DNA from: Girardia tigrina
Lineage: Eukaryota
Assembly: GCA_001938485.1 (NCBI GenBank)
Contig: MQRK01243220.1
Coordinates: forward strand, 8,430-69,405
Length of the DNA: 60,976 bases
Direction of reading: 5' to 3'
The position numbers and the translations under genes were made by a program. This document shows, piece by piece, positions 10,018 to 52,989 of this stretch. The notes under the pieces are model-generated. The model searched no databases. It was given only the letters and a program-made list of their open reading frames with translations, and was not told the origin of the DNA. Position 1 is the first letter of the stretch. Each line of letters begins with the position of its first letter.

Positions 10018-13000
10018 ATGGAAGATACAAAAGTTTGTCATTAATATTTTTTGATAAGGTAAAATATAATTTATAAATGATATAATTAAGGATCAGAAAC
10101 TATTGTACAATCTTTGTGTGAATGGAGATTTGAAATCTATAAAGTTGTTGACTGAAGCAGGAAGTCTTTTAGAACATACATATGAAAAGGTTAGTGGAGA
10201 TTGATAAATCTATTTAAATGCCATTCTTATAGGATAAGAAGAAGAGACCTATCCATCTCACAGTTGAGAATAAACAATTTGAATGTGCTGCAGATTTAAT
10301 CAACCAAGGATGTAATATTGAATCTGAAGATGAATGCGTAAATATTTAAAAAATGTGATGTAATTAAATCTAATAATATAAAATCAGGGTATGAGACCAA
10401 TTCATTATGCCTGTTCGAAGGGGGACGAAAAGATTGTTAAATTATTGATTGAGAATAAATGTGAAATTGATTGTAGAACAAAAGACGTAAAAATCAATCG
10501 ATTTTAAGTATGATAAATTTGTGTCAATTCAGATGAATCAACCAATTCATTTTGCTTGCTTGGATGGACATATTAATATTGTTAAAATATTATTGGAAAG
10601 CAATTGCGAAGTTTACGAAAAAAATAACAACGTAATGATAATTTAATTTATTTTTGCTTACCGTAATAATAAATGACAACCTCAGTAACAATCTGGCCAA
10701 GAAGAATATATTTAATGCTAATTCACTTGTAATTCTCCGACTTTACTGAATGTTGGAACTATTGCAAATGTGACATTATATTTATTAGCCCGAGATTCAC
10801 ACAAAGAAAATGAAACATGGTTGTATCTCCACGACTCAAAACATTTTTTTTGTGAATCTCAATACAGATAAAATATTATTAGGTCATCGATCTTGGTCAT
10901 TTTCATCAACTTATACAAGAAATTGTGATATTATTAATCGATTAACCAAATTTTTGAATAAAAATGTTACTCAAAATCAATTGTTGAGAAAATGACCAAA
11001 GAAATAATTTGTAAATTAATTAATAAGCCGATTAAACCTGCTAGTAATATGGAAGAACCACCGATTTAAAAATATGTTTTGAGTATTACATATTCCGAAT
11101 GATTTGGTAAATTTAATAGTTCAATTTTGAAATGTGTAAATAGTACTTTTAATTTAAAAATTATATCACAAACATATAAAATCAAATTTGTATTTTGTAA
11201 TAAATGTCCAACTCTATTTGTTCTGCGTTTGGATCTCGTATATCAATTAACATATAATAAGTCATGTGATAATAAGCATGTTGATTTTTTATGTTGAGTT
11301 TAGTACAGTAGATATTGTCTATATCAGTGGCCTTCAACCTTTTTTAGACTAATGCCCACTTTTGCTTCATTCTCATCTATAATAAAAAACTACCGCCCAC
11401 CAAAACTTGAAAAACTATTAGATCCAAATACCATTTATTGACAAAAGATAATGCAATATCTACAAAACTAGTATAGTAGTTGAAAGAGTTAATGAGATCC
11501 CCGTGCTTGGTGTTTCGATGCCAAGGACTTAATGTCTGCTTTCAGGTGTGTGAGATGCAGTCTCAAATCGCCCCTTTTAGCAATATCTAGATTGTATCTT
11601 TGCTTGGTGAGAAGATTAGTCATAAACTTTATTCATAAACTTGTAAAAAAAAACAACTTTTGTTATATATAATATTGATATATACTATAAAATGTTAACT
11701 ATGCAATAAGTTGAAACAATGAATGCAATACGTTGACATTATGGATGTAATACGTTGACATGATAGATGCAAGACGATATCTCCTTGGATACGACCATGT
11801 TTTGAATGGTTGATACGATATTGGTTGATAACTTAGTATAATATCATAATATAATACATACCTATAATATAATATTAGCAAACATAATGTGCATACGTTT
11901 GAAAAATTACTAGGCGCACTAGGCATCGATTTTTTCAAAAATCTAAGATCATATTCTGACTATTCATATGTGAGTTACTATCCATGTGTTCAAACCGATT
12001 TTTGATATTTTGCCTCCTTGAACTTGCACACCCTTTGAGAGTTCTGTCCCACTTTAAACTATAAAACACAACATCTCAATAAAGCACTATGTATTGATTT
12101 TATCGAGAATCTAAGATCATATTCCACCTATTTATCTATCTATCTATGTTCAGACAGATTTTCGATATTTTGCTTGCTTCGCCCTTAATACCATATGGGC
12201 ATTCTGCCCCACTTTAAACTATATTATATTAAAACATGAATATATTGCACTTTGTGCAATTATGAACTTATTGATTTTGAACACTTAAACATGTGAAGTA
12301 TTGGTTTGCATATGTGCAGATGAGTGACAAGAATGTCCGGAACGGGAAGTTTATTATCTACTTCCAATTCTGGGGTAAATTTAATATTCGGATGAAGACC
12401 ATTCATGAATGTTAGGAATGGTTCTATGAGGGATTGATTTCTGAAAACCAAAAAGACATCATCCACATATCTCTTGTACAACACAGGTTTTTCACCAGGA
12501 TATGCATTCATTTTATCCTCAAGCGACTTCATAAATATTGATGCCAAAGTTGGTGCTAATGGTGCTAATTTTTTCGTTACCTTTTAAAGTAAATTATATT
12601 TATTAAAATTGTGAAAAATTGTATTATTCAAACAATTCAATAGAAAATTGCTGATGATGATGTATATAAACATCGAAACATGTNNNNNNNNNNNNNNNNN
12701 NNNNNNNNNNNNNNNNNNNNNNNNNNNNNNNNNNNNNNNNNNNNNNNNNNNNNNNNNNNNNNNNNNNNNNNNNNNNNNNNNNNNNNNNNNNNNNNNNNNN
12801 NNNNNNNNNNNNNNNNNNNNNNNNNNNNNNNNNNNNNNNNNNNNNNNNNNNNNNNNNNNNNNNNNNNNNNNNNNNNNNNNNNNNNNNNNNNNNNNNNNNN
12901 NNNNNNNNNNNNNNNNNNNNNNNNNNNNNNNNNNNNNNNNNNNNNNNNNNNNNNNNNNNNNNNNNNNNNNNNNNNNNNNNNNNNNNNNNNNNNNNNNNNN

Positions 13001-13630
13001 NNNNNNNNNNNNNNNNNNNNNNNNNNNNNNNNNNNNNNNNNNNNNNNNNNNNNNNNNNNNNNNNNNNNNNNNNNNNNNNNNNNNNNNNNNNNNNNNNNNN
13101 NNNNNNNNNNNNNNNNNNNNNNNNNNNNNNNNNNNNNNNNNNNNNNNNNNNNNNNNNNNNNNNNNNNNNNNNNNNNNNNNNNNNNNNNNNNNNNNNNNNN
13201 NNNNNNNNNNNNNNNNNNNNNNNNNNNNNNNNNNNNNNNNNNNNNNNNNNNNNNNNNNNNNNNNNNNNNNNNNNNNNNNNNNNNNNNNNNNNNNNNNNNN
13301 NNNNNNNNNNNNNNNNNNNNNNNNNNNNNNNNNNNNNNNNNNNNNNNNNNNNNNNNNNNNNNNNNNNNNNNNNNNNNNNNNNNNNNNNNNNNNNNNNNNN
13401 NNNNNNNNNNNNNNNNNNNNNNNNNNNNNNNNNNNNNNNNNNNNNNNNNNNNNNNNNNNNNATATATATATATATATATATATATAATTCAACGTAATAA
13501 ATATATACAGTATGGGCGCCTTGCACAAACAGTCTATTATTGAAGGAATAAATTATGTAATTTAGATTTTCAAACATTAATTAAATGAAAAAAATTGTTC
13601 AACGGGCTACTTTCAAAACCTTGTCGGTCG

Positions 13631-16600: not shown

Positions 16601-19600
16601 CTCATGATACATCTTTCTGTTTTTACTGTCTCCTTCCATGGCCTACGGATATCTATGTAAACTTTTTCTAATATTTCTGATGCTGTTATTTCTTTGTTTT
16701 CTTCTTTTGTCTATATGGTTATTGACTTTGTAAGTTGGCACTCTGTATATATTCTTCTTACCTCCTTTACCGTTTCCTTTTCTCCATCCTTGTTAAATTT
16801 GTCCCTCAGGTACTCATATACATTTTCTGCTCCTGCGTGGAACAATAAACTATGTTTTTTTATGATGAGATCGTTCCTTTTTTCTTTCGGTATCCATTCT
16901 TTCCCACCTGCTCTGAGTTGACTACTCGAAGTCACTGATAATAATCTATTCTTGTTTTTACCTTTTTTCGCATCCTCATGTACCATTAAGTATTTCGTAT
17001 AGTGTCGCACTTCCATCTTGATACCATTTCCGCATTGCAGTGTAGTTCTCTCTTCCTATATTCTATTTAGATATCCAAACTACTTAAGTAATTCATCCAC
17101 GTTCAAAATTGTGCCGTTAATGGTTTCTTTGTTTGAAACATTAATGTTATTACTTTATGATCTGTTCTCAATTTGATTTTTTTTCTCGTACAGATAATGG
17201 TTGAAATTTTGGCAAAAATAAAAATTGCTTTTGTCTTCCTTTCTTTTTGACATTAGCGGTTGGCCAGTGAGTGCACCGAATTATGCAAAAGCGTTCTCCA
17301 TATCTCTATATTTGTAGCCTCTTTCTCAGGCATTCCATCTTCAATCCTCTCCATTCTTTTAAATCATCTGTCCGTTGTCTCGTGGTTTTCCTCTTGGTCT
17401 TTCTCCTTCCACTCTTCCCTCAATCTTAACCTTTGATAGTGCTTGGTTTCTTATTTGAGGCCCGTAGAATTTCAGCTTCCTTCTCTTAATGGTCTCTTCT
17501 ATTGACTCCGGTCTTTTACCTAGTATTTCTGTCATTCTCCACCAGAAAAAGTCATTTGTCTTCTTCTCTTTCCACGTGATCTTAAGCATTCTCCTGTAAC
17601 ACTTCATTTCAAACGCTTTAAGTCTATCCATGCTCTTCTGATTTATTGTCCAACTCTCGCATCCATAGAGGAGTGCTTCCAAGACAATAACCTTAGTGAT
17701 CTTCATTCTGCTCTTGAGATGGATTCATTTGAGGTTAAAAACTGTACTAAGCTTAATCATTGAGCTTGTTGCAATACCAATCCGGGGTTTGATTTATTCT
17801 TCACTTCCCTTATTTTCTGTGATAGTAGAGCCTAAATATTTGAAACTCTTAACTTGTTCTAGCTTCTTTTCTTCAATGTCAATCTCCAGTTTAACCACTT
17901 TGTTGTAGTTTCCTGAAACCATTATTTCTTTTTTGTCTTTTAATTTCCATTCCAAATTTCTTTTACGCTTTATGTAATCTATTCGTAATTTCCTGAATCT
18001 CTGCCTCATACTTACCTATTAGATCTATGTTGTCAGCAAATTGTAGGTTGGTTATTCTTGTTCCTCCGCAACTTATTCCACCACCGTCTAGATAGTTTAT
18101 TGCTTCAATAACAATTCTCTCTAGAAAAAGGTTGAACAGTGTTGGTGAAATAATGCCACATTGTCTTACTCCTACTGATGATTTAAACCAGTCGCTAAAT
18201 TGTTCACTTGTCAACACTTTTGTCTTTGCGTTTTCCTAAATGCTCTTAATAATTTTCTTAATATGTTTTCCTATTTAGTGCTTCGTGCCACACTCTGTCA
18301 AAAGTTTTTTTTTAATCTATAAAGTTATGACAAATAATTCTTTTGGGGTATCTGGTTTTCTCCAAAATCAATCTTAGGTTGGTTATCTGCTTCGTAGGGC
18401 TGCGTTCCTTTCTAAAACCTATCTGCATCTCGTCTACTTTCGGTGTAATTCTTCTTTGTAACACTTTAAATATAACATTTGATGAGTGACTGATCAAACT
18501 AATTGTTGTAAAGTTGCTGCACCTTCTTTTATTTGCTTTCTTCAGTATAGGAATGAGGATAGATTCAGTCAATTGTGAGGACAAAACCCCACTATTTAAA
18601 ATTTTGTAGCATATTGCATACAGAATGATCACTATATTTTTGCCTCCATTCTGAATTTGTTCAGCGCTCATGTTGTCCATTCCTGGGCTTTTATTCCTCT
18701 TCAAACCTTTTATGGCAGCCTCTACTTCTAATCTTAAGACTTCACATTCGTGATCTTCGACAACTGATTTGAAGTTGTATAGTTCGCTGCAGTATTCTTT
18801 CCAGCTTTGAGCAATTTCTGTACATTTTTTAAGTGCATTTCCATCTTTATCTTTAATTACATTTATTTGTCTTTTTCCTGCTTGGTCAGTTTCTTAATTT
18901 CCTTGAAAGCTTCTCTAGAATTGTTTATTTCAAAACTACTTTCTATCAATTTTGCTTGCTCTTCCGCCCAATTTTATTTCGCCTTCATCAGCAACCTCCA
19001 AACTTTTTTTCGTCTTCCTGTAATCTTGCATGTGCTCTTCACCGTTATTTTTCTTACTTTGTAATTGACGTCGTCTGACACAGCATTTCAAAACCTTTCC
19101 ATTAATCCAGGGTTTCTTCGACTTTCGTCTTTTTCCCAGAACCTCTTTGCCAGTATCTGTGATAATGTTTGTGAACTCGTTACATAGCTATTGTGGTTAT
19201 TGCTTTCTTAGTTCACTCTGAAATTAGTACCTGATTCTAATATCCATCAGTTTCTCTAGGTTGAAAAGCGCTCTTTGATGTTTTGTTTTGGATTTTGTGG
19301 AGAGCTTATGTTTAAAAGTTGTCATGACAAGATCATGATCGCTTCCTATGTCTAGTTTCTTCAGAGTTTTCGTTTTGACTTTTTTGACACTGGATTTGAA
19401 TTTCTTAGATTCCAAAATGTAGTCTAGCTGTTTCTTAGTCATGTCATCAGGAGCATACCATGTTATCCTTCTTGGCGCTTTGTGTCTATGTAAGGTATTC
19501 ACAATAATCTTCTTCTGTCTCTCTGCAAAGTATAGAAGTGCAATACTCCTCTTAGTTGTGACGCCATGTCAGAATTTTCCGGCTAAATAGTGATTAACGC

Positions 19601-22600
19601 CTTCCCAAATCTGCGCATTCAAATCGTCTAAAACAAGGATAATATCTTTCTTTAGAGTCTTGTCAATGAGAATCTCCAGAGTCTCATAAAAGTCTTCAAA
19701 GACTTCCTCATCGTAATCAGTTGTTGGTGATTAGACAGGGATGATAAGAGTGTTAAATGGTTTACTGGAAATTCTGATTGAAATAATTCTTTCGGAGACT
19801 GGTATACATTCCATCACATTGATTGAAGTAGGCTTACCCACTATGAATCCCGAGACGTAATGTTTCTTATTTTCATGACCGCAGTACCACACCTTGTGTC
19901 CATCTTCTGTCGTGTATTCTTCCGTGCCAGTTTATCTCATTTCTGATATGCCAACCACATTCCATCTGATGGTATCTAGTTCTCTAGCCCATAGTTTTTT
20001 CCACTTTTAGACCAGGATCTCACATTCCAAGTGCGTAGAGCAAATAAATTTCTCAATGACATTTTGTCGCCATTAGCAAACTTTCCGTTGCCCCCTGTCG
20101 GCATCAAAAGGCAACACGGCCGTTGTTGACCTGGGCTACGAATAATCCGTAATAAAGTGATTTGTGGCTTTGCTTTGCATATTTTTGAGTGTATCAATAG
20201 GCAGGTAACCTGGTGGCGCCTATCTCCTCTCCAGGTATGGATGACTCGGATGAGCTCATCCGCCCTTTGTCAGGTTTATTTTTAATACTGTTGGGTATCC
20301 AAAATCCACTTCACCCATATTGTTCTGGGTGAGCGAGCCGGTTTATTCACCAGCCATCCGACCAGGTAGCCATCTGCCAGCCATCCGACAAGTAGTACTG
20401 ATTTACATGGTACCTGTAGTAAGCATGATTGCCTAACGTGAAACAAATAGAAGGCAAATTTGATATTAAAATAAAGACAATTTACAAAATCTAAAAAGGA
20501 GGAAATATTCTCTCCATCAATATATATTTATAAGAAGTGTCATCATTAAATTACAGTTATAAATTTAGATACAGTAGATTCTGTTTTATGCTGTTTCGAA
20601 ACAATGCGGTTTTGAAAAAAAAATTTTTTCAATGTTTCAAAAATAATATTCTTGTTTTATTTATATTCATGAGCTTTGCTAATTAACTATGGCTTAGCAA
20701 ATTTGGTTTTTCAAATTGGTGGTTTTCATGTAGTAAGCTTTGCGTTTTTAATGTCTTTTTAATATGTATTTTATTTATTAGCAAATTGATAATTATCGAT
20801 TGAGTTAGGGATACTTATTTAAAATTTACTTAATTACTTAAATATTAATAAATAAAAATAAATTGTTCTTGAAAGTAACTTTTTCAAATTAATAAGAGAT
20901 ATTTTTAATTATAATTCTTTACAAAAACTTTTGATTTTAGAATATTTTTTTATTTTAATGCTTACAGGCCTTACTCGCTCTTCTTGTGTGTACTCACTAA
21001 CATTAGTATGTTTCTGCAATGTACGAATTTTGGCATCTTTGACATAAATTTTTTTTGGTACCGTAGCCTTTGGGCCGTGCGTGCACTCAATTATGCACAA
21101 GCATTGGCTTGGGTTTACATATTTTTTGAGTGTCTCAGTAGGCAAAGAACCTGGTGACGCCTATCTCCTCTCCAGGTATAGATGGCCGTGGGCTCCAAGG
21201 AGCTCATCCGCACTTTGCTAGGTTTTGTTTTTCATCCACACACCTCTTCACCTAGGTTACTCTGGGCGAGGGAGCCGGTTCAGTCGCCAACTATTCGACC
21301 ATGAGACAAGTAATACAGGTTTACATGGTACCTGTAGCAGACAGATTTCCTGACCTGACCTGTGACACAAATATTTATATAAAATATGAGCTCGCACACA
21401 CAAATCAGTGTGTCGCAGATTTCTAAATTCTGTACATTCCAGAATTAGTACATCATCAACATGTCATGAATTATAGTGAAGTAATCAATTGTAATTTCTT
21501 AAGGGAAATTCAATCATTTTATTGAAATTAATACTCTAAAGTATTCATTCAAATATTTAGAGAGAATTATCCGTGCTGGACATAGCTCATTGGAATGATT
21601 CTGAGAAAATTATTAAATATTTGATGGAAAAGACACTTGATGATGAGGTTAATGATTGATTGTCATGCTAATTAATCAAGTTTTATCTCATAAATGAAAC
21701 AGGAAATGACATATCTGACGGAAGTATATAAAAATATAATGAATATAGAACATGGCACATTGTTGGGAGAGGTTTGTTAGAAATATGTCTATTCAAGCCA
21801 TAATTAACGTTCTTAGATGATATTGTATCGTTGTATCCGAGATCGTCACACCGACGGTTTCCATAAGTTCTGTCTATCTGAAATCGTCAATAATCAACAA
21901 AAGCTGGTAAATGAATCTGTTGAATGGAAATTTAACTTTGTGTCATTAGATCAAGTTTTCCTTTCTGTCAATTGTTTCCAAAGAAGGTTGCAGCATTTTT
22001 GTGAAAGAGCTTCTCAAGAAAACCATTTACAATAAAGAGGTTAAAAATAACAATAATATATATCTGTTAAATATCTTTTTTATGAAATCTATATTATTGA
22101 TTTTATGACGGTTTATATTAAGACTTGGGATTCGGCGATGAACGAAGCTAAAGAGCATAATCATAATGATATTACAGAAGATATAAAAGATAGAGGGAGT
22201 ATGATTGAGTCGAGATTAAAGGTAAGGATGATTATATATGAAGAAATGCTCATTGATTGAGATTGTAGAGCAATTTCTCATTATTGCATACAGCGGTGTG
22301 CGACAATGACGACGATATGGTCAGATATATATTAGAGAAGAATATTTTCGATCCTAACATCAATCATGAGGTGAGAAATATTTTCCAACTGATTATCCTT
22401 TGAAGAGAATATGACAGACTTTTGGAACTGCATTGGCCCTTGCTCATTCACTGTGTAATAAGAAATGTATCAAAGTTCTAGAACACTTCAATGTTCAGAC
22501 AAATACACAAAACAAAGTTAATTATTAAAAGATATTAATAATTGATAATCAGTTCCTTGATTTAGTTTATGCAAACGCCGTTACACGAAGCAATTGCTAG

Positions 22601-22807
22601 TGGCACATTTGATTGGAGTGATTATTTGATAGAAAAATGTGATAATATTGACAGAGCTGGATTTGTGAGTTGAGAGAATCACTAAATAAAGAGAAACTAA
22701 TGCAAGAATTGTAGAATAATTTGACTGCCTTGCACTGTGCTGTGATGGAAGAGAAGATGAATTGGTGTGAAAAACTAGTGCAAAATGGAGCAGACAGCAC
22801 TCGTAAA
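10018..22807 (+). CDS. Multi-exon ankyrin-repeat protein (5' and 3' ends uncertain)
   Basis: GT-AG exons, all phase 0, open when joined: 10018-10032, 10091-10189, 10239-10337 (KKRPIHLTVENKQFECAADLINQGCNIESEDEC), 10388-10486 (GMRPIHYACSKGDEKIVKLLIENKCEIDCRTKD), 10533-10631 (MNQPIHFACLDGHINIVKILLESNCEV), 14279-14359 (NDTPLSLA), 14402-14485, 21561-21647, 21703-21771, 21817-21906, 21950-22039, 22123-22221, 22269-22370, 22418-22516, 22566-22664 (FMQTPLHEAIASG), 22715-22807 (NNLTALHCAVMEE..LVQNGAD). Seven exons are exactly 99 nt, the length of one 33-aa ankyrin repeat. Confidence 0.9.
11325..11630 (-). mobile_element. hAT (Charlie/Buster-type) 3' end fragment
   Basis: CAGTGGCCTTCAACCTTTTT terminus; minus strand encodes LLTKQRYNLDIAKRGDLRLHLTHLKADIKSLASKHQA..SH*, the Buster-type C-terminus. 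Confidence 0.75.
11900..12230. repeat. Two about 170-bp related subunits, possibly a non-autonomous Helitron/DINE-like element
   Basis: AATCTAAGATCATATTC...GATATTTTGC...TTCTG(T/C)CCCACTTTAAACTATA occurs twice (near 11940 and 12108). Confidence 0.4.
12260..12560 (-). mobile_element. Penelope-like RT fragment
   Basis: LASIFMKSLE..KPVLYKRYVDDVFLVF..MNGLHPNIKFT.ELEVDNKLP. Confidence 0.8.
12684..13460. other. Assembly gap (N run) bordered by (TA)n
   Basis: N run; further gaps near 41604, 47270, 49937 and 56462. Confidence 0.99.
14648..14983. mobile_element. MITE with about 33-bp TIRs (Tc1-like)
   Basis: GCAGAATTTTACTTGGCCAACAAAACTTTT at left; inverted AAAAGTTTTGTTGGCCAAGCATAATTCTGC at right. 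Confidence 0.6.
15799..15875. repeat. 77-bp near-perfect inverted repeat
   Basis: 38-bp arms with 3 mismatches and a 1-nt loop. Confidence 0.9.
16080..17225 (-). mobile_element. Gypsy RNase H/integrase remnant
   Basis: WIPKEKRNDLIIKKHSLLFHAG; WADILPEVEFAINA. Confidence 0.85.
17240..20445 (-). mobile_element. Near full-length degenerate RTE-clade LINE (APE endonuclease + RT)
   Basis: TWNVRSW, DYILES, GSDHDLV (EN); KSPGMDN, GVRQCGIISPTLFNLFLE, LQFADNIDL (RT); LLYGCESWT; GC-richer 5' UTR at 20060-20445. Confidence 0.92.
21030..21370 (-). mobile_element. Isolated RTE 5' UTR of a related family
   Basis: Shares CCTGGTG.CGCCTATCTCCTCTCCAGGTAT, GAGCTCATCCGC and TTTACATGGTACCTGTAG with 20200-20420. 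Confidence 0.75.
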
Positions 22808-24819
22808 GTAATTTTATTAAATTATAATGCTCACCTAAATGTTTTTGTGAGGAATATTGTGAATGATAAAGTGTATTGTATTTTTTATGCTGTCGTTAGG
22901 GGCGTAGCCAGGATTTCATTTCGAGGGGGGAATATTGATGAACATTACACAATTTCGACCACATTCACACACACTGACATCGTTAGAGATTTTTTGGTCC
23001 TGTTAAATAGCGTTTCCATATTGTTTATTGTTTAGTAAGAATGAAAAGAGGCTGGATATAGAAATTATAGCGTCTTCTACCGAAATTGTAAGGAGTAAAG
23101 AATATAATAAAGACAAGAAGTACATTATTTCAAATTTATATAAAAAGCCCAATCGTCGTTGATATTGATCAAATTCCTCCAGTACTTCGTAGACGTTTTT
23201 TAATATCTGGAAAATATGGAATATTACATTGATAAAATGTTTCCAACGCTGTCACTGACTGGTCTTTGGGGAGACACTAAATGTACTTTGCAGAGTAAAG
23301 GCAAAACTCCAACGGCAATTACCGCTTATCGATAGGGGTCTCATATAATTGGTCAAGCTTTTCAAAGTTATTATCGATAGCCTTATGGTAGTTGAAAGGA
23401 ATAAGAGCTTCAAAAATTGAAAATATCTTCTCGTGATTAAGATTCAAATTATCATTAAGATTGCTCTGTGAAAGCACAATTCTTTCTAGAAATCTCTACT
23501 TAAGGTAAACTGAATATTATATTAGCGAAGATGTTTTCTAACGTTGTCAAGAAATACGTTGTAAACAGTTGTCCTATAATAATCTTCTGCCGATAAGAAC
23601 TGCTAAGAAATTCCAACGTGATCTGAAAATATACGTCTTAAAATTCCATCAGGTCCTGAGAAGATTTTATGAAAAGTTTCTTGACTATGCTCACAAGATT
23701 GATTAAGTATACTCAAAGCAGATTTTGTGTGAACAACGCATGCTGCTACTGTGTTACCCCAAATATTTTGCGCGCGCAAACTAAACGAATAGTTTGCGCA
23801 TGCGCAAATTATCCGAATAAATTGTGCGCGCAAATTATTTAGCTATTTTCACACAAGTTTTTGATTTTCTCACGTGGAAAATAAAATGGAAAAAAATTTT
23901 TAAATAATTAATCAAGGGCTTGTTCGCATAATAAGTGGAAGATTTTTATATAAGTATCATATTTAGCATGGCTACACTTAAAATTTTTCTGTCAATTCAA
24001 TACCAAATAAAAAGTCACCTAATTTAAAGCTATTTGAAAATCTTTTGAAATTAATTTTCCAACTATATATAAAATATTTATTTCTTTAATATTGTTTCGT
24101 CTTTTCAATATTTTAATGAATGGATTAAAGAATGGTCAAAATAAAAATCTGCTTCTGATATTAGAAATGCACTTTGTGTTTGTGGATTAAATGAATATTT
24201 TGATATTAATGATCTTAGTATTTTGCATGAACCATTAAGAGAATGCTGGAATACAGATTTTGATATATTAGCATGGAAAGAAAAATATAAAAATTGTATA
24301 AATAAAATAGAACAACAAAATTTCTTCAATGAAAATAACGATGAATGGATAGTTACAACAAAATCTCTTTGGATGACTATGTAAAAAAGTCTTCCTATTG
24401 ATGAACAAATATTTAATAATTTGAAAGAAGAAATTAAACATCACTTTATTTCTTTTGTTAAAAATTCAGATGAATTATCTGAATTGTTTGATTAATGTGA
24501 ACAATCATTAGTAGAAAAATAAACTGTTACTGAAAATAGATTAAACTTAGTTGTACTTAGTAATATTTTAAAAAAAAATATTCAAGTAACATTTTTGGAT
24601 GAAAATTTGCAAGAAATTGAAAATTTTACGTATGAAAAGTTTAAAAATGATATATACATTTGATATACAAATGATATATACATATATAAAATTTGCAGAA
24701 TATTTTGCTTATAAAAACATTGATAATTTATGTTTTTAATCTTCAAATATTTATCGAACTTGTGTATCATTTTACTATAAATTTAAATAAATTTTAGTAC
24801 TGAATACTTTCTTATATAT

Positions 24820-25522
24820 TGTTGGGTTCTTGATCGAGATTACAATTCATTAACACCAAAAATTTATTAATAACACAAATAACAATTATTTAAACATTTT
24901 TTCTTGAGAAACTTTCGTTTTCTTTTTTTTGACCAAATTTCTTATACATAAAAATATGGAGTTATAAATAATGATGAGCTATTTATTAAAACGAGATTTT
25001 AGAAATTATTATTTTTATTATTTACAATTCACAAATTTAAAATGCAAAACCATTATTTTTTATTTTAGAAATACAATTCTCAAATTTAAAATACAAAAAT
25101 ATTATTTTTATTTTAAAAATACAAAAATATTTAGCAATATTTAAATTTATTATTATTTAATAGAGATTCATTAATTATAAAATTTTAATGGCAGTTTTCT
25201 ATATATATTATATATTTTATTAATTATTTATCAAATTTTAATTGGCAGAATTTCTAACTGGTTTTTTAAATCTAAATTATCTTTTTTTATTACATCTCTG
25301 ACAACAAAAATTTCGTAAAGTTATTCTTCGGAATAACTTTTAAAATAAATGCAAAATAATTAAAACTCAATTATTTATGAGAATAACTCTTTTTTTTAAA
25401 TTAATTGGATATTTAGTTATAACTGTTTTAGAAACTTTTGATTTTAAATATTTTTATTATTTTAGAGATTATTTACAAAAATTAATTATTCAAAAATTTA
25501 AAGAATGAGCTTGTCCTTCACA
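24820..25522. mobile_element. Solo LTR
   Basis: TGTTGGG...CCTTCACA with TSD TATAT; related to 27745-28615. Confidence 0.8.
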
Positions 25523-25710
25523 TATATTATTACTTATTATTTTTTTAATGAGAATAGAGAAATATATATATGTCAGAAATTGTTTGTATTTGAAACGTTT
25601 TCACAAACCTTTTTATTTTATTTTTTTGAATCGAAATAATATGCCTGCGCAAACTAAAAGGTGCGCAAATTATTTTAATAATTTTATAAAACTTTTAGAA
25701 AATTGATTAT

Positions 25711-26562
25711 TGTAGTGGGGACGCTGCGCAGTCCCGATGGGGACTCAACGGGTCCAATCACCGGGAGAACCTGTTAGATAATAATAATAATAACCTACCG
25801 GTTTCGGATGGCGTTGGAATACTGTGGGGCCGCCATCTTGCTCTAAAGCTCCAGAACGACGTCGATTCGATTTGAGGGCGTTCGAACTGAGACGCGATGA
25901 TCGCACGGAGAAACCGAATTCCTTGTCGTTGATATGGTGGGTGATGTTGTTACCGTTGTTGTTGCCCGCTGATTGATCCAAATGAGACAGATTGAAGTCG
26001 GTCGAGACCGACTGGTTGAGTAAACTGAAGCTGTTCATACTGGTCGAGTTGGTGTGATTGTTGTTGATATTAGACGATTGGAAAATCGGATCGGATTCGG
26101 GAATCGAATACATTTTCGAGTCGAAGACGTTGAATACAGGCGCTGAAAAATGGGCTTGGTTGTAGAATTGATTGATGTCCGGTTTTTTTGGATATAGTTC
26201 TCGTGGTAGCCGATCGGATTCGACGAGTAATCGTTCATGGGATTGTTTAACGTCTGTCGAGAAATAAAAATCAGATTTTTGTTGAAAAATTAGTAATGAG
26301 AAATTGAAAACGCAAAAGCACAAAAAAAATTATTTCCCACTTATTTAAAAATTACAAATATTAAAACAACATTAATTTAATTAATGCTTTTTTAATTAAT
26401 TTCCGATATTTTTTTCAGTTCTAATGTTATCGATTCACTCCCTTGTTTTTAGAAATTAAATTTTGCATTTTTTACACATTTTTTGTTATTAAGTTTTGAT
26501 TGTTAAAATTAAATTAATAATTAAATTGATAATAAATAAATTAATAAATTGTGGTCACTACA
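25711..26562. mobile_element. Solo-LTR-like element carrying a host-like gene fragment
   Basis: Ends TGTAGTG...CACTACA; 5-bp TSD ATTAT; GC-richer minus-strand exon 26253-25799, 28-nt intron, then exon to the terminus. Confidence 0.75.
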
Positions 26563-27744
26563 ATTATTTTTTAAAATTCGTTTAGTTTGTGCGCGCAAAC
26601 TATTCGGGGTAACACAGTAGATCTTTGGATTCGGAATGTAAGGTTTTGGCAAATCGAATAGTTAACGAGGTGATATCTTTGGCAACAAGTAATAATATGA
26701 CAAAGAAGCTTTTATCTATTGTAAACGGAGAGCTTCTGCATTTGGTGAGGTTTATGTATCGTGGTCTTCTGATATATGTTTCAGAGCATCCATAAATGAC
26801 TAAAAAGTTTATTAAATTGAATTATGGCATAATAATTTTCAATCCATCCAGATTCACATAAGTAATGAGCATCGATTTATTCTTTGGAGATAGAACTCTT
26901 TTGAAAATAATGGATCTTTTTGGAGAGATTGAGAAATAGCTAAACACTTGGGACATGATGTTTTAACAAGAGACAAGTTGAGATTGTGGCTGGCAAATGC
27001 AAGTAAATTGCTTTAGGATTAATATCCTGAATTCGTTTTTGAACACCTAACACACATCTTTTAATAACAGTGGCACCGTCGTAACCTTGTTCATGTACAT
27101 AGCTCATATCAATATAAACTTTTATTAGTTTCGTTATTATAGTGTGAGTTATTCTCTCGGTCGATTGATCATCTAATGGAAAAAATCAAAAACATCTTTT
27201 TGTACATTGTCTTCATCAACGTAACTAAATAAATCATTATTCAGAAATCACACTAAAAATAAGTAGCAATTATGTTTTTATCTTAATGAGAGAGAAAGTT
27301 ATTCAGTGTCATGGCAGTCACATGATTCATCAATCAGATTAGAGAAGCATTGAGATTTGTTGACTCTTTCCCAAATTTTTTCCTAATGGCCTCAATTTTG
27401 AGTTTGAAGACTGATGTATGAGCGGTTTTGGGAGCAGAAATAAATCTTTCATAAAGAGGTGCCAGATGTAGGAAATATTGCGATATATTAGCTAAATCAT
27501 CATAATAATCTTCGTGTCCTCATAAAGGTAATTTATATCGCCCTTATTACAAGATTTTCTCTATGATTGTTTCAAAGCTTGTGTGCTTTTCCTCGGATTG
27601 TTTTTTGGATCCTTTTTTTGGTTTTGTGAATAAAATCTAGTTTACTTTTTGTAGAGATTTCTAGAAAGAATTCTGCGTTCAGAGATTAATCTTGATTCTA
27701 CTTTGTCTTTTAGTGTCATCGAAAATGTTAAATTGCATCCTTCC

Positions 27745-28615
27745 TGTCTGGTTTTTGATCAAAATTATAACTCATTATCACCAAATTTTATTTCTATCAC
27801 AAATAACAATTATTCAAATAATTTTTTGTCGAGGAACTTTTCTTTGTTTTCTTTATGACCCGATTATTATAACAAAACAAAGAATTATAAATACTGATAA
27901 ACTATTTTAAAATTGAAATTTTTTATTCTCTTTATTTTGAAAATTTACATTCCACTATTTTGCAATTTAAGGTAATTTAAAACCAACATAATTTATTGTA
28001 GTCATATTTTTACTAAATTAACAAAATGATTTTTTATTATTTTAGAATTAGTTTAATGTTATTTTCTTTTATTTATGAAAACTTTTTTTTAATAAAAGAT
28101 TTTAACGTCTTATTTATTATCAATATTTCAGTTTAAAATTTTTTATTACCTAAAATTATTTTAAATACCAAAGTATACAATTTTAAAACAATTTGTTTTA
28201 AATATAATTTAAATACAAAAAATAATTTATAGTATTTTACAGTAATTTACAAATTTTTATTATTATTACAATACGTTAATGATAAGTCTTAATTAATTTT
28301 TTTTACAAAACTGTTTAGAATAACTTTTAGAATAACTTTTAAAATTAGTGCAAACATATTTTATCCTTGTATTTATATATTTCTTTTAAATCAATTATTT
28401 AAAAATCCATTATTTCCCAATTGATTTCATTTTAAGTTTTAACTCTACAATTAAAATTCGATTATTTCCAAAAATAACTTTTTAAAATTAATTAAGATAT
28501 ATTTTTACATTATAATTGCTTAGAAAACATTTGATTTTAAATATTCACTTATTTTAGAGATTATTTATAAAAAATTATTTATTCAAAAATTTAAAGAATG
28601 AGCCTGTCCTTCACA
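27745..28615. mobile_element. Solo LTR
   Basis: TGTCTGG...CCTTCACA with TSD CTTCC. Confidence 0.8.
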
Positions 28616-31181
28616 CTTCCATTGCTAAAAGATTTGACAAACAAAGCGTCTTGATGACTGGCAGCCTCATTTCCAAAGCATTCATTGTGAACATGACACA
28701 TAGTTTACAAAATGTACCTTATAACTTGTGGGAAAATGTCAACCACGACCATTTATCAAACCATATTGTTTGAAATTGTAAATTTCTTTTACCGATAGGG
28801 AAAATGTAGGAGGAATCAGGAGTCCACAAAGACAACATTTTTTTCTCACTAAAGCTGATTATTCAGTCCTTTCATTAAGTATAAAAATCAAAGTCTCTGT
28901 AATACTGATATCTGATTGAAATGAACTGGGACGGCAATTGTCATGCATCAAAGGATCTGAAGTATTTTCGACAGGAGAGGAGTTATGTGTATCATTTATA
29001 ATTGGTGGAAGAATAGATTATATAAAAGTTTAAGTCGATACTCAGTTTAAATTTGAATTACTACTGCCTGCAGAAATGAATTTAGATCTCTTTGTTCTCG
29101 GGACAAAGAAATCGGGGATATAATGTTGCCTCTGATGATGAAGTTGCTGAAATCGAGTTTTATTAAACCAGATTAAATTTTTTATTAACAATATTTTAAT
29201 CGGAGAAATAATAGAGTAAATTAATTAAAAATTGATTAAAATTAACAATATTTAAGAAAATTATTTTTTCCAGATAAAATTCATAATTAATAATGTATAT
29301 TTTATTAAATTTTAAACCATTAAGAATTTTATTAATTAGAAATGATTTATTGGAAAATTTTTTTTATATTTAGTATTTGTCAGTAAATTTTTAGTTTGGA
29401 AAATGTTCTGAAAATATTTCGAGGGGGAATCGATCACTATGTCCTCCTTTCGCTACGCCCCTGGCTGTCGTACGTTTTGTGATAAACTCGTGCAAAAATA
29501 AAGCAGAATACACTCTCAATATTTTATTACATCATTTACCAAAGTAAATAGTAATACAAGAGGAAGCTATCTAAATAACAAATAATTTTTATCGAAAATT
29601 AATTTCAATAATTTTACTTTCATTGTCATCGTTGTTATGAAGGGTAAATATTAATTTTAGATCTGTTTGTATTTGTACACAGTAAATATGTAATTAATCA
29701 ATGATTATGTCATCTTAGCACACAAAATAATTATACTGAAAGACCCTTTCACACATTGATATTAGTATCTAAACATTTTATATATAACGCATCACTGACT
29801 AGTCTCTCCCAATAATTATAGGAAAGGGTACACATAATTTTGATATGCCAATAAACATGAAAGAAGCAGCAATAATTATTTCTTTTAATATTTTCACAAA
29901 TTTGAGTATATTCTTATGTTAAATTAATGCTAGCCGACATAATAAAGGTATTGTGTATCAGATGTTTTATCCGTTTGAAAATGATCTAAGATCATTACTG
30001 TGACTTTTTAAGGGGGAATAAAACAATCTACTCAAAGGGGGACCGATATCGAATTCCTAAGGCCTTCCTAATTTTCTTTGCACTTTTTACACTTTCTGTT
30101 TGTAAGTTGTAGGCTGAAATTGGGCTATTTCATCAAATTTTACACATTTCAGATTTTTTTCTTCAGGCGGCATTTTTCTCAAAACAAAGATTCGAAAACA
30201 TTTTTCAATTTCGGTGAAGATTTTGTTCAGAAGATATGTCTCCAAACTCTCCACTTAATATGCACATTTAAGCTATATAGATGAAAATTCTTCATATATT
30301 ACCTCAATAATACAAAATTTACCATCAGAAAAAATGGAATGAGATTAAAATTTAACATACACATTCTTAGATTCGTGATAACTCATACTTGAAAAATCAG
30401 AAGTTGACATTTTTAAAACTTTTATTTAATAACAACAAAATAACAGTTTTAAACAATTTTTTGTAATAAATTTCCGAGAAATACTTTTCCTTTTTTTAAT
30501 TGCAGAAACCATGTTTACACAGTGAGAAATTTTTAGGTATGATGTGTCGTAGTTCAAAAATAACTGCCGAATTTTTATTATAACTTTTAAATAGTTTGTC
30601 GAAATTTAATTAAATTCAACAGAAGTTAAATTTAATTAAAATGTATTAAATAAAATAAAATTAATGGTTGTTTAAATAAACGAATTGGAAATTATTTTAA
30701 AAGCATACAATTTAAGAAATATTCGGAAGAATCAAGAATGATTCCAATATAGAAGAAGATCACAGACTTTTATTTTATAAAATTTATAATATAAATTTTG
30801 TTTATCGAGTGAAATTCCGGCTTCTAACATACATAATATTAATGAATTTTATATATAGATATATAATTTAATATTTTATTTAATAAGTATTTTAATTAAT
30901 AAGTATTTAATTTATAAGTATTAAATTTTATTTGTATAAATGTTTATTTTGAAAATTTTTATTTTAACTGTGTCGGTCTTATTAAAAATGATTTTTACCA
31001 AAACATCTCTAAATTATATATTTATTATAAAATATATTTGAGAATAATTCATTATACACTTCTAAAATAAAATGTACTTTCATCTTACTTTTCTTCTTGG
31101 GTTTCTTTTGCGATCCACCGAAAAAACGAAGTGTTATTTCTCAATTTATAAATAATTTTTTATTTATATATAAATTTACAG

Positions 31182-31371: not shown

Positions 31372-34300
31372 TGTGAGGAATATCGGGTGTGTAATTGTTT
31401 TTTGTAGTGTTTGCATGTTTAAATGTTGTGTTGATTTTTTTGTGTGTTGATTTGGTATTGTGCCTCTCCTAATCAATTCTCCTAATGTTCAATATTTTAA
31501 TTCTTATAATATGAAACTAATTTATTTAAATTTAGATTTAATATTCAAATTTTTAATTTTTATTATTGCAACTTTTAAATAATTTTATTTGTTTTTATTT
31601 TTGTAAATTTTTAAATAATTAAAATCAAATTAATGTTTAAAAATGACTATTAAAATATTTTAGTGTAACAGTATGACAACTCAAGTTGATAAGAAACTAA
31701 ATGGTAAAACGGAGATATTAAAGATATCAAAGTTTAAGATAAATTGTAAAGAACTGAAAGGACGTCCAAGTGTGGATTTTTACGTGAAAGATAGGAAAGT
31801 TTATTGCCTTTTTGACACTGGAGCAAGAGTAAATGTAATGAAAAACATGAAAGATATTAAAATAAGAGAAACGAAAAAAACATATCCATTGCGCAAATGA
31901 TTCAGAACTGATCAATTAAGGAGTCGTCAAATTAAATGTGGCTATTGAGGGAACACAAAAGTTAATAGAGTTTTATGTGGTCAAAGAACTAGACCCGAAA
32001 TGATCGCAGGTATAGATTTCTTGGATAAATTCGGAATAAAACTGAAAAGACAGATACCTCGAGGTGGAGAAATATTGGTGATTAGAGACAACCCATCAGA
32101 TGAGGACAGACTAAGAAGAATAATGGATATATTTGACAAGCAAATTGACGGGCAATTAATGAAGATTCTAGCCAATTATAAATCAGTATTCATGGCTGAT
32201 AAGTGGGATATTGGGAAAACATCATTGACAAAACATAGAATAGAAACACACGGGGATCCAATACTAATAAAACCTTATCGGCAACCAAAACACTTTGAGG
32301 ACAAATTGGATGATGTTATTAAAAATTTCGAAGAAAATAATATAATCGAAAAGTGTAGCTCACCATGGAATTTCCCATTAGTATGCGTATGGAAGAAGGA
32401 AAAACAAGATATTCGAGTGTGTGTAGACTTCCGCTAGCTGAAAAGAATTAACGTCAGGCCAGCGTTTCCTATGCCAAATGTAGATGACATGCTGAACACA
32501 CTGAATGGTGCGCAATATTTTAGTACAATTGATCTTCGAAACGTATACTACCAAGTCGAGTTGGAAAAAGAATCAAAGATTAAAACAGCATTCTCAACAA
32601 AGAACGGACAGTATTGTTTCAAAAGAATGCCATTCGGGATAGCAGAAGAGGCAGCAAATTTCCAAGAGCTAATGGTCAAAGTCCTTGAAGATTTACACTT
32701 GAAAGAGACAGTAGTATATTTGGACGATATTTTGGTTTTTGCAAAAAATAAAGAAGAGCATATGCAACAAATAAAACATGAACTGGAAAAAATTAAGGAA
32801 GCAGGTTTAAGAATTAACCCAGAAAAGTGCCAATTTTTAAGAGAAAGAACAAAATTTTTAGGATATATTGTCAGTAAGAATGGTATAGAAACTGATCAAA
32901 CAAAGATTGGTGCCATTAAAAAATTTCAGAACCCATCATATATCAAACATTTGAGAAGTTTCTTGGGTCTAACAAATTACTACAGAAAATTTTTAAAAGA
33001 TTACGATGTGAGGAATGTTTTGAATTGTGTATTGATATTGTGCATGTAGAATGTTGATTCGGATTGTGCCTCTCCTACACAGATGGATGATTGATATTTT
33101 CTTTGATTCTTACTAATTAAAAATAATTTAATTTAATTTTAAAGTAAAAAGATTTAAAATAATTTTGAATGTATTATTTTTTTTTTAATGTAATTTAATT
33201 TTAACCAATTAGATTCTTTATAATTTAATAATTTTTATTAACAGAGTTTCATTTATTGAAAATAATTAGTTTGAACTCAAAAAAAATTGATCAAGAGAGA
33301 TGTCAGATAGTGAATGCGCTTGTAATATTAATAAATGTTGTAAACCTCATATTGATGTTGTTAATATACGCAAAATACTCAAAAGTATTGAAGAGTTTGT
33401 GTGGTAAGAATAAAGACAAGAAAATAATATGGACTGAAGAATACGAGGAAGCTTTTAGAAAATTGAAAGAAAAAATGATTGACACCCCGATACTGGCGTA
33501 TCCTGATTTTCAGAAGGAGTTTATACTGGATACAGATGCAAGCTTCGATACAATCGGGGCAGTATTATCACAGAAGGACACGTATGGTAGAGAGAGAATG
33601 ATCACGTATGGATCACATAAAATGAACAAACTTGAGCTTGGATATTGTGTTACGAGAATAGAGTTGCTAGAAATTTATTATTTTACGCTAAATTTTAAAC
33701 ACTTCTTATACGGTAAAAGATTTTTACTAAGAACTGATCATAAAGCTATTACCTTCATGTTGAATACGAAAAACCCAATAACACAACAATTTCAAACGTG
33801 GATAGATTTTCTTAGTAGTTTAAATATGAGAATGGAATATCGGAAAGGAGGAAACCACTAGAATGCAGATGCAATGTCGAGAAATTCTTGTGAATTGTGT
33901 AATCAGTGTCAAACAATGCAAACAATGTAAAGAACAAAGAAATGGTTACTGAAGGACAATATTGTGACAACAATAGATAACAAATATTGGATTCCGAGAA
34001 CCGGGCAGAATTCGTTGAAGACGCTCACAAGATGCTGTGCCATGTCGGTAGTAAAAAGGTTTATAAATATTTGAAAGATTATTTTGATATGGTTAATATG
34101 AGAGAGATAATTAAGGAAATTGTAAAATGTTGCATAAACTGTCAAAAAAGAAAGACTTTAACCACAAAAACGAAAGAAAGTTTTATTAAACAATTTGCTG
34201 GTGAACCATTTAAAAAGTTGTATATGGATTTTTGTGGACCATTTAAAAGGACTTTAAATGGATATCAATATATATTAGCTATAATCGATCAATTTAGCAG

Positions 34301-35405
34301 GTATATAAGTCTGAATGCTTTAATTCATCAAGATGAGAAAACTGCTCGGAAGGTACTACTGGACAGATGGATTTGGAAATTCGGACTACCAAAAGAGATC
34401 CATGTGGATAGAAGTAAAGCATTCGAATCGACACTCTTCAAAGACACAATGAAGTTATTTAAAGGATAAATAATTTACTCCGATCCTTATCATCACAATA
34501 TCAATGGCATCATTGAAAGACAATTTAGAACAATTAGAGATGCTATGAACATAAGGATAAAAGACCAAGCCCACAAAGATTGGACGGAAATATTGCCAGA
34601 AGTAGAATTTATGATGAAAAGCACAATTCAAGCTACCACATGAATCTCACCAGCAGAAATGATATTTGGTAGGAAGCTAAGACATTGGTGGAAAGATACT
34701 AAGAAACATAGTTTTAATAAGAAGGAAAAGAGCGAAAATACGATAGAAACAAAAGGAATATTTCATACGGGGGATAAAGTGTTGATAAAAAAAGAAAATG
34801 CTACAAAGGAAGAAGATCGATATATGGCCCCAGCCACAGTAAAAAGTAGTAGACATGAATGAAGTTATGAATTGGAGCTAGAAGATGGTAGATTTTTGAT
34901 TATAAATGTGGAATGGCTAAAGCCATTTAAATCGAGGGGGATGTGAGGAATATTTGATATGTGGAGGTTTTTGTATAGTGTTTGCATGTTTAAATGTTGT
35001 GTGTTGATTTGGGATTGTGCCTCTCCTAATCAGATGGGTGATCATTATTTTAATTCTTATATTCTGAAACTAATTTATTTAAATTTAGATTTAATTTTCA
35101 AATTTTTAATTTTTATTATTGTAACTTTTAAATAATTTTATTGATTTTATTTTTGTAAATTTTTAAATAATTAAAATCAAATTAATGTTTAAAATTGACT
35201 ATAAAAATATTTTATTTCAGCCAATAAAATTTAAATTAACTATTCTTAAATAAAATAATTTTCTCAAGTTTAGTTTAGACTATAATGAGAGATATTGAAA
35301 ATTGAGTGATGGACTTAAAAGAAATCAATAATATTGATTATCATAAAGATGATAGGAAATGTGAATGTAATATATGTTCTGTCAAATGTGTGACTTCTCT
35401 TAACA
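31372..35405 (+). mobile_element. Ty3/gypsy provirus, family A, gag deleted
   Basis: Truncated 5' LTR; PR (LFDTGA), RT (YLDD), RNase H (DTDAS), IN (YMDFCGP); PPT GAGGGGGA; 3' LTR 34942-35405; TSD ACTTC/ACTCC. Confidence 0.92.
33007..33366 (+). mobile_element. Solo LTR inserted in RT
   Basis: TGTGAGG...GTTGTTAATA; TSD TACGA/TACGC; RT reading frame resumes after it. Confidence 0.85.
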
Positions 35406-38068: not shown

Positions 38069-38905
38069 TTATTCCGAAGATTATTCCGAAACCGAGAGTG
38101 TCAATGGGGACATTGTTTCCGGGAAATCAAAATTCAATTAATTTTCTTTTAATCAAATCAATCTCTTTTCGACTAATTAATTCGATTCGATTAATTGCTG
38201 TAGCAATTCTTTCAGGACGAGTGCGTTGAAGAAACAGATTATGATGAAGCACAGCGACGATTCCTTGAATAATGTTCCCTTGACCTGTGAGACGGTTGAG
38301 ACCGGTCCTTTTTTGAGAAAGACACTGAGCTTTAATATGAAATCGAATAAACACAAAACGAAGAAATATATCTCATCTTCCTCTGAGATACAACATCTAC
38401 ACTAAAATCGTAATCAATTTGCACACCGGAGCCTGTGGCTGTAACGGTTTTACCAGTCTCATAATACCAAATTTAATGGTTTGTAATTTGCCTGTAACAG
38501 TTTTTTATTCTTGATGTATTTTAGTCTTTTTACCTTTAGTGTCACATGTGTCTAATTTTCAATATGTTGAATACTTTTATTTGTTTCAGAAGGTCGAATC
38601 AGACGAAATGGAATTACATAGTGACTTTTCGGTATCTGATGAATTACATAGTGATGAAACTGGATATATTAATAAATTTCCGTTATCTAAGGAATCGTTG
38701 GAGTTGGTGGACCTGAAGACATTTGAGGAAAAAGAGTTATTGGTTTGTTTTTTTTTGTTTTTAAAGAATATCGCGTGAACAAATAAAATTTACCTCCATA
38801 TCTTTTTTTAATACTATACCATCTTAATAACCTTGGAAATAACCAGAAACACTTCAGAAATAGTCCATAATAACAGAGTTAGTTTTGGAGCAGCGTAGTA
38901 GTTAT
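38069..38905 (+). repeat. Host exon-fragment cassette, copy 1
   Basis: Near-identical to 44950-45630 and 60205-60861; includes AG/GT-bounded 153-nt exon 38590-38742 (KVESDEMELHSD..EKELL). Confidence 0.85.
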
Positions 38906-44613: not shown

Positions 44614-44689
44614 TCCATAAAATTCATTGCGCCAGTGATGGACCCTCGAGTGGAGGAGCTGGAAGTCAAGTCTGACAAAAAAGTTGTGA

Positions 44690-45630
44690 CCTTTTTAAAT
44701 TATTGTGTAATCTGGTTTATTTTAGTAAATGTTTGACAATGCTTTTAAAAAATTGTTTTTCTATTTTAATAAATAAATATTAATTTTTTTTTCAATGTTG
44801 TTATTTCCAATTTTCGTGAAATCCTTTTTATTTTATTCAAATTTGATATTTTAGAAAAACATATTAAAATACTTCTCCATTTTTTCATTATTTACTTGGT
44901 TTCTACACTGAATTCTTAATCGAGTTTCACACCGGAGCCTGTGGCTGTACGAGTGCGTTGAAGAAACAGATTATGATGAAGCACAGCGACGATTCCTTGA
45001 ATAATGTTCCCTTGACCTGTGAGACGGTTGAGACCGGTCCTTTTTTGAGAAAGACACTGAACTTTAATATGAAATCGAATAAACACAAAACGAAGAAATA
45101 TATCTCATCTTCCTCTGAGATACAACATCTACACTAAAATCGTAATCAATTTGCACACCGGAGCCTGTGGCTGTAACGGTTTTACCAGTCTCAATACCAA
45201 ATTTAATGGTTTGTAATTTTGCCTGTAACAGTTTTTTATTCTTGATGTATTTTAGTCTTTTTACCTTTAGTTTCACATGTGTCTAATTTTCAATATGTTG
45301 AATACTTTTATTTGTTTCAGAAGGTCGAATCAGACGAAATGGAATTACATAGTGACTTTTCGGCATCTGATGAATTACATAGTGATGAAACTGGATATAT
45401 TAATAAATTTCCGTTATCTAAGGAATCGTTGGAGTTGGTGGACCTGAAGACATTTGAGGAAAAAGAGTTATTGGTTTGTTTTTTTTGTTTTTAAAGAATA
45501 TCGCGTGAACAAATAAAATTTACCTCCAAATCTTTTTTTAATACTATACCATCTTAATAACCTTGGAAATAATCAGAATCACTTCAGAAACAGTCCTTAA
45601 TAACAGAATGAGTTTCACAGCGGTGTAGTA
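44690..45630 (+). repeat. Host exon-fragment cassette, copy 2
   Basis: Aligns with 59945-60861; acidic exon at 45321-45473. Confidence 0.85.
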
Positions 45631-52675: not shown

Positions 52676-52920
52676 GATACCAAGTGAACCGGGGCCGTTG
52701 TTAAGGTGATTGCAATTGTTACTAGGGTGATCGAAACCGTTGCTAGGGGGTTACTGACCAATCAGAAGTGTTGTTTGGAAATCGCTACAGTTGCTAAGGT
52801 CCCAGAAACCAGTCAAAAGCGTTTCCAAGTGAACTGGAACCGTTGCTATGGTAACCGGAACCATTGCTAGGGTGATCGTGACCGTTGCTATGGTAACCGG
52901 AACCCTTGCCATGGCAATGG
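52676..52920. promoter_or_regulatory. 21-bp-periodic array of RFX X-box-like motifs with a CCAAT box
   Basis: GTTGCTATGGTAAC at 52842 and 52884; variants at 52697, 52718, 52739, 52790, 52821, 52863, 52905; CCAATCAG at 52758. Confidence 0.55.
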
Positions 52921-52989
52921 GCTACCCCTTCCCCCGGGGGGTAGTGGGTAGAATGCCCATTTTCCCCCTACTGATGAGATAAAAGAAAA

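Follow-up and report, generated by a model that had tools for sequence, protein, structure and literature searches.

Within the 60,976-nt stretch of Girardia tigrina DNA analysed here, called the window in the following, an 852-bp unit with short inverted ends carries a GC-richer sequence resembling a piece of a gene, which raises the question whether this piece was taken from a host gene or belongs to the mobile element itself. A preliminary description had read the locus as a solo-LTR-like element with a captured host-type exon and a 28-nt intron. A mobile, solo-LTR-like unit and the coding ancestry of its GC-rich part are upheld by our analysis, the peptide as read there is not, and the coding relic is more probably the start of the element's own gene than a stolen host exon.

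The window consists of AT-rich DNA that is dense with decayed transposons, comprising pieces of gypsy pol and gag, transposases of the mariner type and non-LTR fragments. The decayed transposases (DDE_3, HTH_48) and fragments resembling non-LTR reverse transcriptases, the latter labelled as such by eye from their translations, are found at 4178-5154, 6225-6518, 17359-20270 and 12260-12583, and a dense cluster of decayed gypsy elements occupies 31372-58450. A repeat of about 930 bp (97% identity) has long copies at 44676-45604 and 59931-60860, a partial one at 38217-38901 and an exon-like piece near its end. Two GC-rich patches are present as well. The first (52680-52960) lies upstream of a gag-like ORF and contains exact GTTGCTATGGTAAC near-palindromes at 52842 and 52884 and a variant at 52739, which resemble RFX X-boxes. 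The second (58432-58640) comes after a partial LTR, lies in a minus-strand frame that is free of stops for 120 codons, contains TGTAGTG twice, and has neither a Pfam match nor BLASTN similarity to the unit. The sole host gene recognised in the window is a plus-strand ankyrin-repeat gene, whose introns measure 47, 49 and 50 nt. A further intron-like stretch, of 42 nt, was chosen by eye, and the exon of this gene that follows the GT donor was not located. Five N-run assembly gaps (12684-13461, 41604-41646, 47270-47319, 49938-50015 and 56462-56627) occur in the window, none of which touches the unit.

The 852-bp unit is a true insertion. It is bounded by TGTAGTG and CACTACA with ATTAT on either side, and the letters match the preliminary description exactly (Table 1). 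Its ends are complementary at 7/7 bases and agree with the Ty3/gypsy consensus TGTTRNR..YNYAACA at six of seven positions. A relaxed pattern of a TG-starting 7-bp inverted end plus a 5-bp direct repeat occurs three times in the window, against a mean of 1.5 in shuffled windows (30 shuffles), and a strict one (TGT, at least three G/C in 7 bp) occurs once and is present in 12 of 200 shuffled windows; since the strict filter was chosen after the unit had been seen, the end pattern alone is modest evidence, and the ATTAT duplication is of low complexity. The insertion is concluded from the stronger evidence of its context, because the unit splits the end repeats of a surrounding TIR element: six of the seven GCGCAAA motifs of the window are located at the ends of this element, and two of these six (25647, 25663) are cut off from the right TIR by the unit. 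Around both lies an outer element, which we take to be hAT-like, with copies of its GCTGTCGT duplication at 22889-22896 and 29464-29471, so that outer element, TIR element and unit form a triple nesting across 22275-29471. The coding relic is antisense to the ankyrin-repeat gene, and the splice-like sites of the unit are therefore unusable by the ankyrin transcript; the present copy probably has no effect on the host. Neither an RNA gene (no Rfam match within the unit up to E = 1, no tRNA in the whole window) nor folding of the terminal 120 nt of the unit beyond that of shuffles (z about -1.1) was detected.

Table 1. Features of the 852-bp unit and of the elements around it (positions in the window)
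Feature	Position	Strand	Remark
Outer element with 8-bp duplication GCTGTCGT	22897..29463	.	Encloses TIR element and unit; downstream of the GT donor of the ankyrin-repeat gene
TIR element, TA-flanked	23749..26617 (approx.)	.	Arms 23746-23790 and 26576-26620, 93% complementary; right subterminal region receives the unit
Left target-site duplication ATTAT	25706..25710	+
Inserted unit, solo-LTR-like, 852 bp	25711..26562	.	One copy within the window
Short inverted end TGTAGTG, 7 bp	25711..25717	+	Complementarity to the opposite end lost beyond base 7
Tail	25711..25829	-	In the relatives' frame one stop here (25760-25758), otherwise open to the terminus
Proposed 28-nt intron with (TTA)n microsatellite	25771..25798	-	Unsupported
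C4 run, second frame break	25826..25829	-	3/3 relatives go on in a frame other than that of this copy
Core of coding relic, N/S-rich	25830..26179	-	GC3 70/116; AAC 14/14 in one frame; no fold predicted
A7 run, presumed first frame break	26183..26189	-
Upstream piece of coding relic	26190..26253	-	Frame with ATG at 26238 agrees with core codon bias
Acceptor-like CTCGACAG, putative	26254..26261	-	AT-rich/GC-rich boundary
AT-rich part of unit, 12-26% GC	26261..26555	.	AATAAA on + at 26263, 26531, 26535, 26543
Short inverted end CACTACA, 7 bp	26556..26562	+
Right target-site duplication ATTAT	26563..26567	+

As described before, over half of the unit is GC-richer (550 of 852 bp, with G+C 260/550, the remainder having 12-26% per 50-bp bin). 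By its composition, this GC-rich part is of coding origin. The 14 AAC triplets of the core relic form nine separate clusters over ~280 nt, all in one phase (p=5e-5), and its three-base periodicity (chi2 26.2) is equalled by 3 of 3000 stop-free controls, a signal that is lost once the Asn codons are removed (p=0.20). The stop-free run of 171 codons was matched by 54/2000 dinucleotide and 156/2000 trinucleotide shuffles. The CpG observed/expected ratio is 1.57 compared to 0.92 in the window, and the G-over-C skew resembles that of the 5' part of the neighbouring LTRs but is weaker (0.25 vs 0.57). The attribute "host-type" is not borne out: two-fold codons end in C or G in 32/54 cases vs 21/63 in the ankyrin exons (p=0.006), where this single host gene serves as the reference. 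In a neighbouring integrase the count is 54/157 (p=0.002). The absence of a transposable-element motif from the peptide was confirmed, as no Pfam family matched the 194-aa frame, the 60-aa and 84-aa upstream frames, P0002 or P0003 (the latter two are introduced below). The GC-rich part has no DNA similarity to the other LTR families of the window.

When the 151-residue frame of the unit, designated P0001, was compared with 1.84 billion representative proteins, three matches were obtained (P0002, P0003 and P0004), all of which have the unit's tail. Since three other records share its sequence at the protein level, the unit probably belongs to a multicopy repeat family; sequence comparison within the 60,976-nt window gave no second copy and just AT-rich noise. 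The three relatives are known as proteins only and were recovered because they are open frames. P0002, encoded on a 793-nt contig, has 78% amino acid identity to P0001 over 99 residues, and its frame runs, open and without splicing, from its first residue to roughly the terminus of the unit. It shares the core relic, of which P0003 and P0004 have only the 3' part. Relic and P0002 differ at 18 of 96 residues, and 17 of these 18 differences are reachable by one base. Their mean BLOSUM62 score is -0.67 vs -0.45 +/- 0.36 for simulated neutral change, with 74% of the neutral simulations scoring as high or higher. Purifying selection between the two was not detected, at the low power that 18 differences give, and the relic looks to be drifting neutrally. 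AlphaFold2 predicted no fold for it from a two-row alignment (pLDDT 47.4, pTM 0.12).

P0003 and P0004 have unrelated N-termini that are joined to the 3' part of the unit, so that the unit sequence stands at their 3' end. Residues ~121-227 of P0004 (937-nt contig) align to alpha/beta hydrolases, with 33% to the named P0039, and Pfam gives an Abhydrolase_1 match below cut-off; this N-terminal hydrolase part is probably ABHD13-like. The junction of P0004 consists of three residues common to both partners followed by the unit's tail, and the hydrolase similarity of P0005 and P0006 stops where it lies. This junction is compatible with cryptic splicing, with template switching and with assembly error. 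The first ~76 residues of P0003 have, in our estimation, a ZER1/ZYG11-like look, and for this part the ESM Atlas returned only unnamed clusters (0.89-0.90); the comparison of P0003 with solved structures gave one chance match (E 0.74). From its sequence, the P0004 fusion hints that copies of the unit may enter host transcripts, and the two fusion ORFs lend weak and ambiguous support to the earlier idea that the exon spreads into such transcripts. Solo LTRs of the Echinococcus ta-TRIM elements likewise fuse to host transcripts and have 4-5-bp duplications, but these LTRs are described as giving the 5' start (PMC4558846), whereas in P0003 and P0004 the unit sequence is at the 3' side.

The sequence features on which the captured-exon reading had been built do exist, namely the acceptor-like CTCGACAG at 26261-26254, the 455-nt stretch at 26253-25799, GTAGGT..CTAACAG at 25798-25771 and the quoted peptides. 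The relic contains two frame breaks, and both ends of the proposed peptide are therefore probably misframed. Its N-terminal ~22 codons (DVKQSH..) are likely in the wrong frame, with a GC3 of 5/21 vs 70/116 in the core (Fisher p=0.003), whereas the alternative upstream frame (ATG at 26238) has a GC3 of 16/22 and includes all three upstream AAC triplets. At the other end, the frame of VFQRHPKP and the spliced tail is used by none of the three relatives, and P0003 is open for 45 codons beyond the C-run. The A-run at 26189-26183 reads as what we take to be a slippery heptamer of the retrovirus type; a programmed frameshift at this site was rejected, as there is no structure downstream (z +1.09 and +0.56).

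The proposed intron fares no better. The 28-nt stretch has GT..AG ends, but all three relatives read through it, a finding which would say nothing on splicing if their records are genomic. They have eight codons across this stretch compared to nine in the present copy, so that it would be 25 nt long in them, and the residues at the proposed branch or acceptor are not the same in them either. The four host introns available for comparison, picked by eye, measure 47, 49, 50 and 42 nt, and the branch A is 4 nt from the end in the 28-nt stretch vs 26 and 15 nt in the two of these four with CTRAY. The short-intron pattern occurs in 195/5000 composition-matched controls and at four other places of the window, three of them within transposon sequence. 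The stretch is best explained as a TTA microsatellite flanked by a GT and an AG, cryptic or due to chance, and not as an intron. As the intron is unsupported, the argument that its retention implies antisense orientation or DNA-level capture loses its main support.

A parent gene was not found among the 1.84 billion representatives or among 294 longer candidates, and neither set gave a longer gag-like protein starting with the relic sequence. The ESM Atlas gave no usable match for P0001, a search for a phage origin of the relic gave no match, and of 72 pattern matches examined for a prokaryotic origin none was confirmed in GTDB genomes. Without a parent gene, the antisense or siRNA source that had been suggested has no target. 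None of the three relatives continues into a gag domain, in a protein set that may represent the organism poorly. The peptide had also been considered as a possible gag N-terminus with no host parent, and this has become the somewhat likelier reading, although the gag continuation was not found: an intact expressed gene would be expected in protein sets more than a decayed element, and for this reason the missing parent outweighs the missing gag.

Taking together all explanations that assume one, it is rather likely from the sequence that the unit is a solo LTR, probably of an undescribed LTR-retrotransposon family of the Ty3/gypsy type. LTR inverted ends are described as TG..CA of about 7 bp (PMC3601003). 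The unit shares such ends, a short duplication, a sub-kilobase size and the lack of pol with solo LTRs of Ty3/gypsy elements (Metaviridae), and differs from them in carrying about 520 nt of coding-derived sequence; a paired copy or interior was not seen. The two neighbouring gypsy elements at 39746-44613 and 31372-35405 have 5-bp duplications as well, with four of five bases matching in each. On the plus strand, three AATAAA near the 26562 end are followed by the GT-rich TTGTGGT, an order described for animal Metaviridae LTRs, and poly(A)-type signals of the minus strand in the AT-rich part are ATTAAA only (26396, 26381) with no AATAAA.

The reading we tentatively favour, by analogy, is that the relic is the beginning of the element's first ORF, a gag leader encoded in the LTR and preserved within the solo LTR. 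The 464-bp gypsy LTR family of the window (34942, 39746 and 44150, 90-95% alike) has an N-rich frame of about 32 codons that is open to the LTR end in all three complete copies, and in the LTR at 39746-40209 it continues in phase into a gag-like ORF. In a second LTR family (50068-50661) a shorter frame with an ATG likewise reaches the LTR end without a stop. The order of parts in these LTRs, an AT-rich stretch and then an ORF up to the end, is that of the unit's minus strand. In the unit's case the frame is open to about the LTR end in P0002 and has one stop in the present copy. The LTR of yeast Ty1 is of this kind as well, with an AT-rich stretch followed by an N-rich frame open to the end. 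In Ty1 the primer site lies inside the GAG coding sequence just past the 334-bp LTR (PMC5454406).

An integrase would have put the element into the right end of the older TIR transposon and duplicated 5 bp; of this course of events, the insertion into the TIR element and the 5-bp duplication are observed. Solo LTRs arise by LTR-LTR recombination, which would have deleted the interior and left one LTR. By analogy to the neighbouring gypsy LTRs and Ty1, the sense strand of the element would be the minus strand of the window, and the ~520-nt relic would be the in-LTR part of a disordered, N-rich gag leader running past the LTR end. The present copy is now decaying neutrally: judged against the relatives and by its codon bias, it has lost the frame twice and gained one stop. 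Copies near genes could join host sequence and thereby give fusion ORFs. Several findings speak against a gag leader. The relic has about five times the length of the neighbours' LTR ORFs, its GC3 is 0.60, and its codon bias is unlike that of the neighbouring integrase. All four AATAAA are on the plus strand, the three near the 26562 end forming with the TTGTGGT after them the textbook LTR layout for the opposite orientation, and the coding-like composition begins exactly at a good acceptor in the fashion of an internal exon. Moreover, the relatives do not continue into gag, and there was no sign of a second LTR to pair with, of a primer site or of a polypurine tract.

It is doubtful, if still the most serious competitor, that the LTR took up a host or foreign coding exon with flanking intron and has carried it as a passenger since, in which case the exon would probably be antisense to a plus-sense LTR and copies would sometimes be joined into host transcripts. 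The coding-like periodicity and the single frame of 9/9 AAC clusters agree with an exon, but the periodicity is gone without the Asn codons; the sharp GC step at the acceptor and the GT donor at the far end also agree with it, but in the relatives the frame runs straight through both the supposed donor and the intron. Neutral drift is expected of a passenger, and the AATAAA layout favours a plus-sense LTR. The codon bias differs from that of the neighbours' pol, as an exon of other origin would allow, but it is also unlike that of the window's one host gene, and no parent was found, although the unit's own relatives are in the same protein set. The fusion ORFs P0003 and P0004 would fit a more elaborate version, which we regard as unlikely: an LTR family captured exon and acceptor, spread as solo LTRs, and now provides a portable terminal exon by which host proteins are truncated and re-tailed.

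Capture within LTRs is known for sequence of RNA genes, since Cassandra, Helenus and Ajax are TRIMs with small-RNA-gene sequence inside the LTR, some groups with 5-bp duplications (PMC10886601). They would be a precedent for host sequence within an LTR, but the unit has no tRNA or Rfam match, is protein-coding-like and has no second LTR in the window. LTR-mediated retrocopies are mRNA-derived, element-flanked and of known parent (Tan et al., 2016; PMC5131818); they resemble the unit as host-element chimeras, and the three-residue junction of P0004 resembles the microsimilarity described for them, whereas no parent was found for the unit's relic. In the titles and abstract openings covered by our literature search, which took in few subscription papers, there was no report of protein-exon capture within an LTR.

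Distinctly unlikely is a plus-sense solo LTR whose GC- and CpG-rich U3 overlaps an antisense ORF of the element, or in which in-phase GTT/AAC repeats mimic coding sequence. The AATAAA at 26531-26543 with the following GT-rich stretch, as described for animal Metaviridae LTRs, would suit this orientation, but in the AT-rich LTRs of the neighbours AATAAA is frequent on either strand. The raised CpG ratio and the skew shared with the 5' part of neighbouring LTRs, if weaker, agree with it, and the ORF length is reached by chance in the trinucleotide shuffles given above; the nine AAC clusters in one phase and the upstream phase match are hard to obtain without translation.

A non-autonomous DNA transposon of the Ginger/TDD or Pack-TIR kind with captured genomic DNA, of which a Ginger-like form had been offered as the alternative to an LTR, is improbable. 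As described, Ginger1 has TIRs of 40-270 bp and a 4-bp CCGG or CCGT duplication, Ginger2/TDD has TIRs of about 50-180 bp or longer and TGTNR ends, and Ginger duplications are 4 bp in animals and 5 bp in TDD-4/5 (PMC2836005). The TGTAG start of the unit fits TGTNR, and its 5-bp length agrees only with the duplications of the Dictyostelium TDD; just 7 bp are complementary, the duplication is the AT-rich ATTAT, and there is no transposase, so that the unit differs from Ginger1 in both TIR and duplication and from Ginger2/TDD in the TIR. Pack-TIRs occur in animals and yield host chimeras, but their parents are described as identifiable (PMC8277862), whereas none was found for the unit. Two further classes were rejected. 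IS481EU has duplications of about 4, 15 or 25 bp and is described from parabasalids only (PMC10045372), and neither this source nor PMC5408684 gave anything decisive for the identity of the unit. The window holds a single CACTACA, and the flanks of the unit bear a 5-bp direct repeat. Inside-out ends of a CACTA transposon, which the end layout of these transposons had led us to consider, were rejected on these grounds.

Coincidental ends flanking a duplicated, decayed gene fragment that is no self-contained mobile unit are very improbable: the chance rates of like end patterns and the low complexity of ATTAT would allow them, but the unit makes a clean break in the subterminal repeats of the TIR element around it, the GC-rich sequence terminates exactly at the 25711 end, and the similarity to P0002 extends, by eye, to about the same end.

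With the gag leader as the best reading, the unit would be one more solo LTR, notable just for an unusually long LTR-encoded ORF, and its U5 would then have to exceed 500 nt. Should an exon have been captured instead, in-LTR capture of the Cassandra type would extend to protein-coding exons, beyond the RNA genes for which it is known. One exon would then also have a route of spread that needs no full-length element, since solo LTRs outlast recombination.
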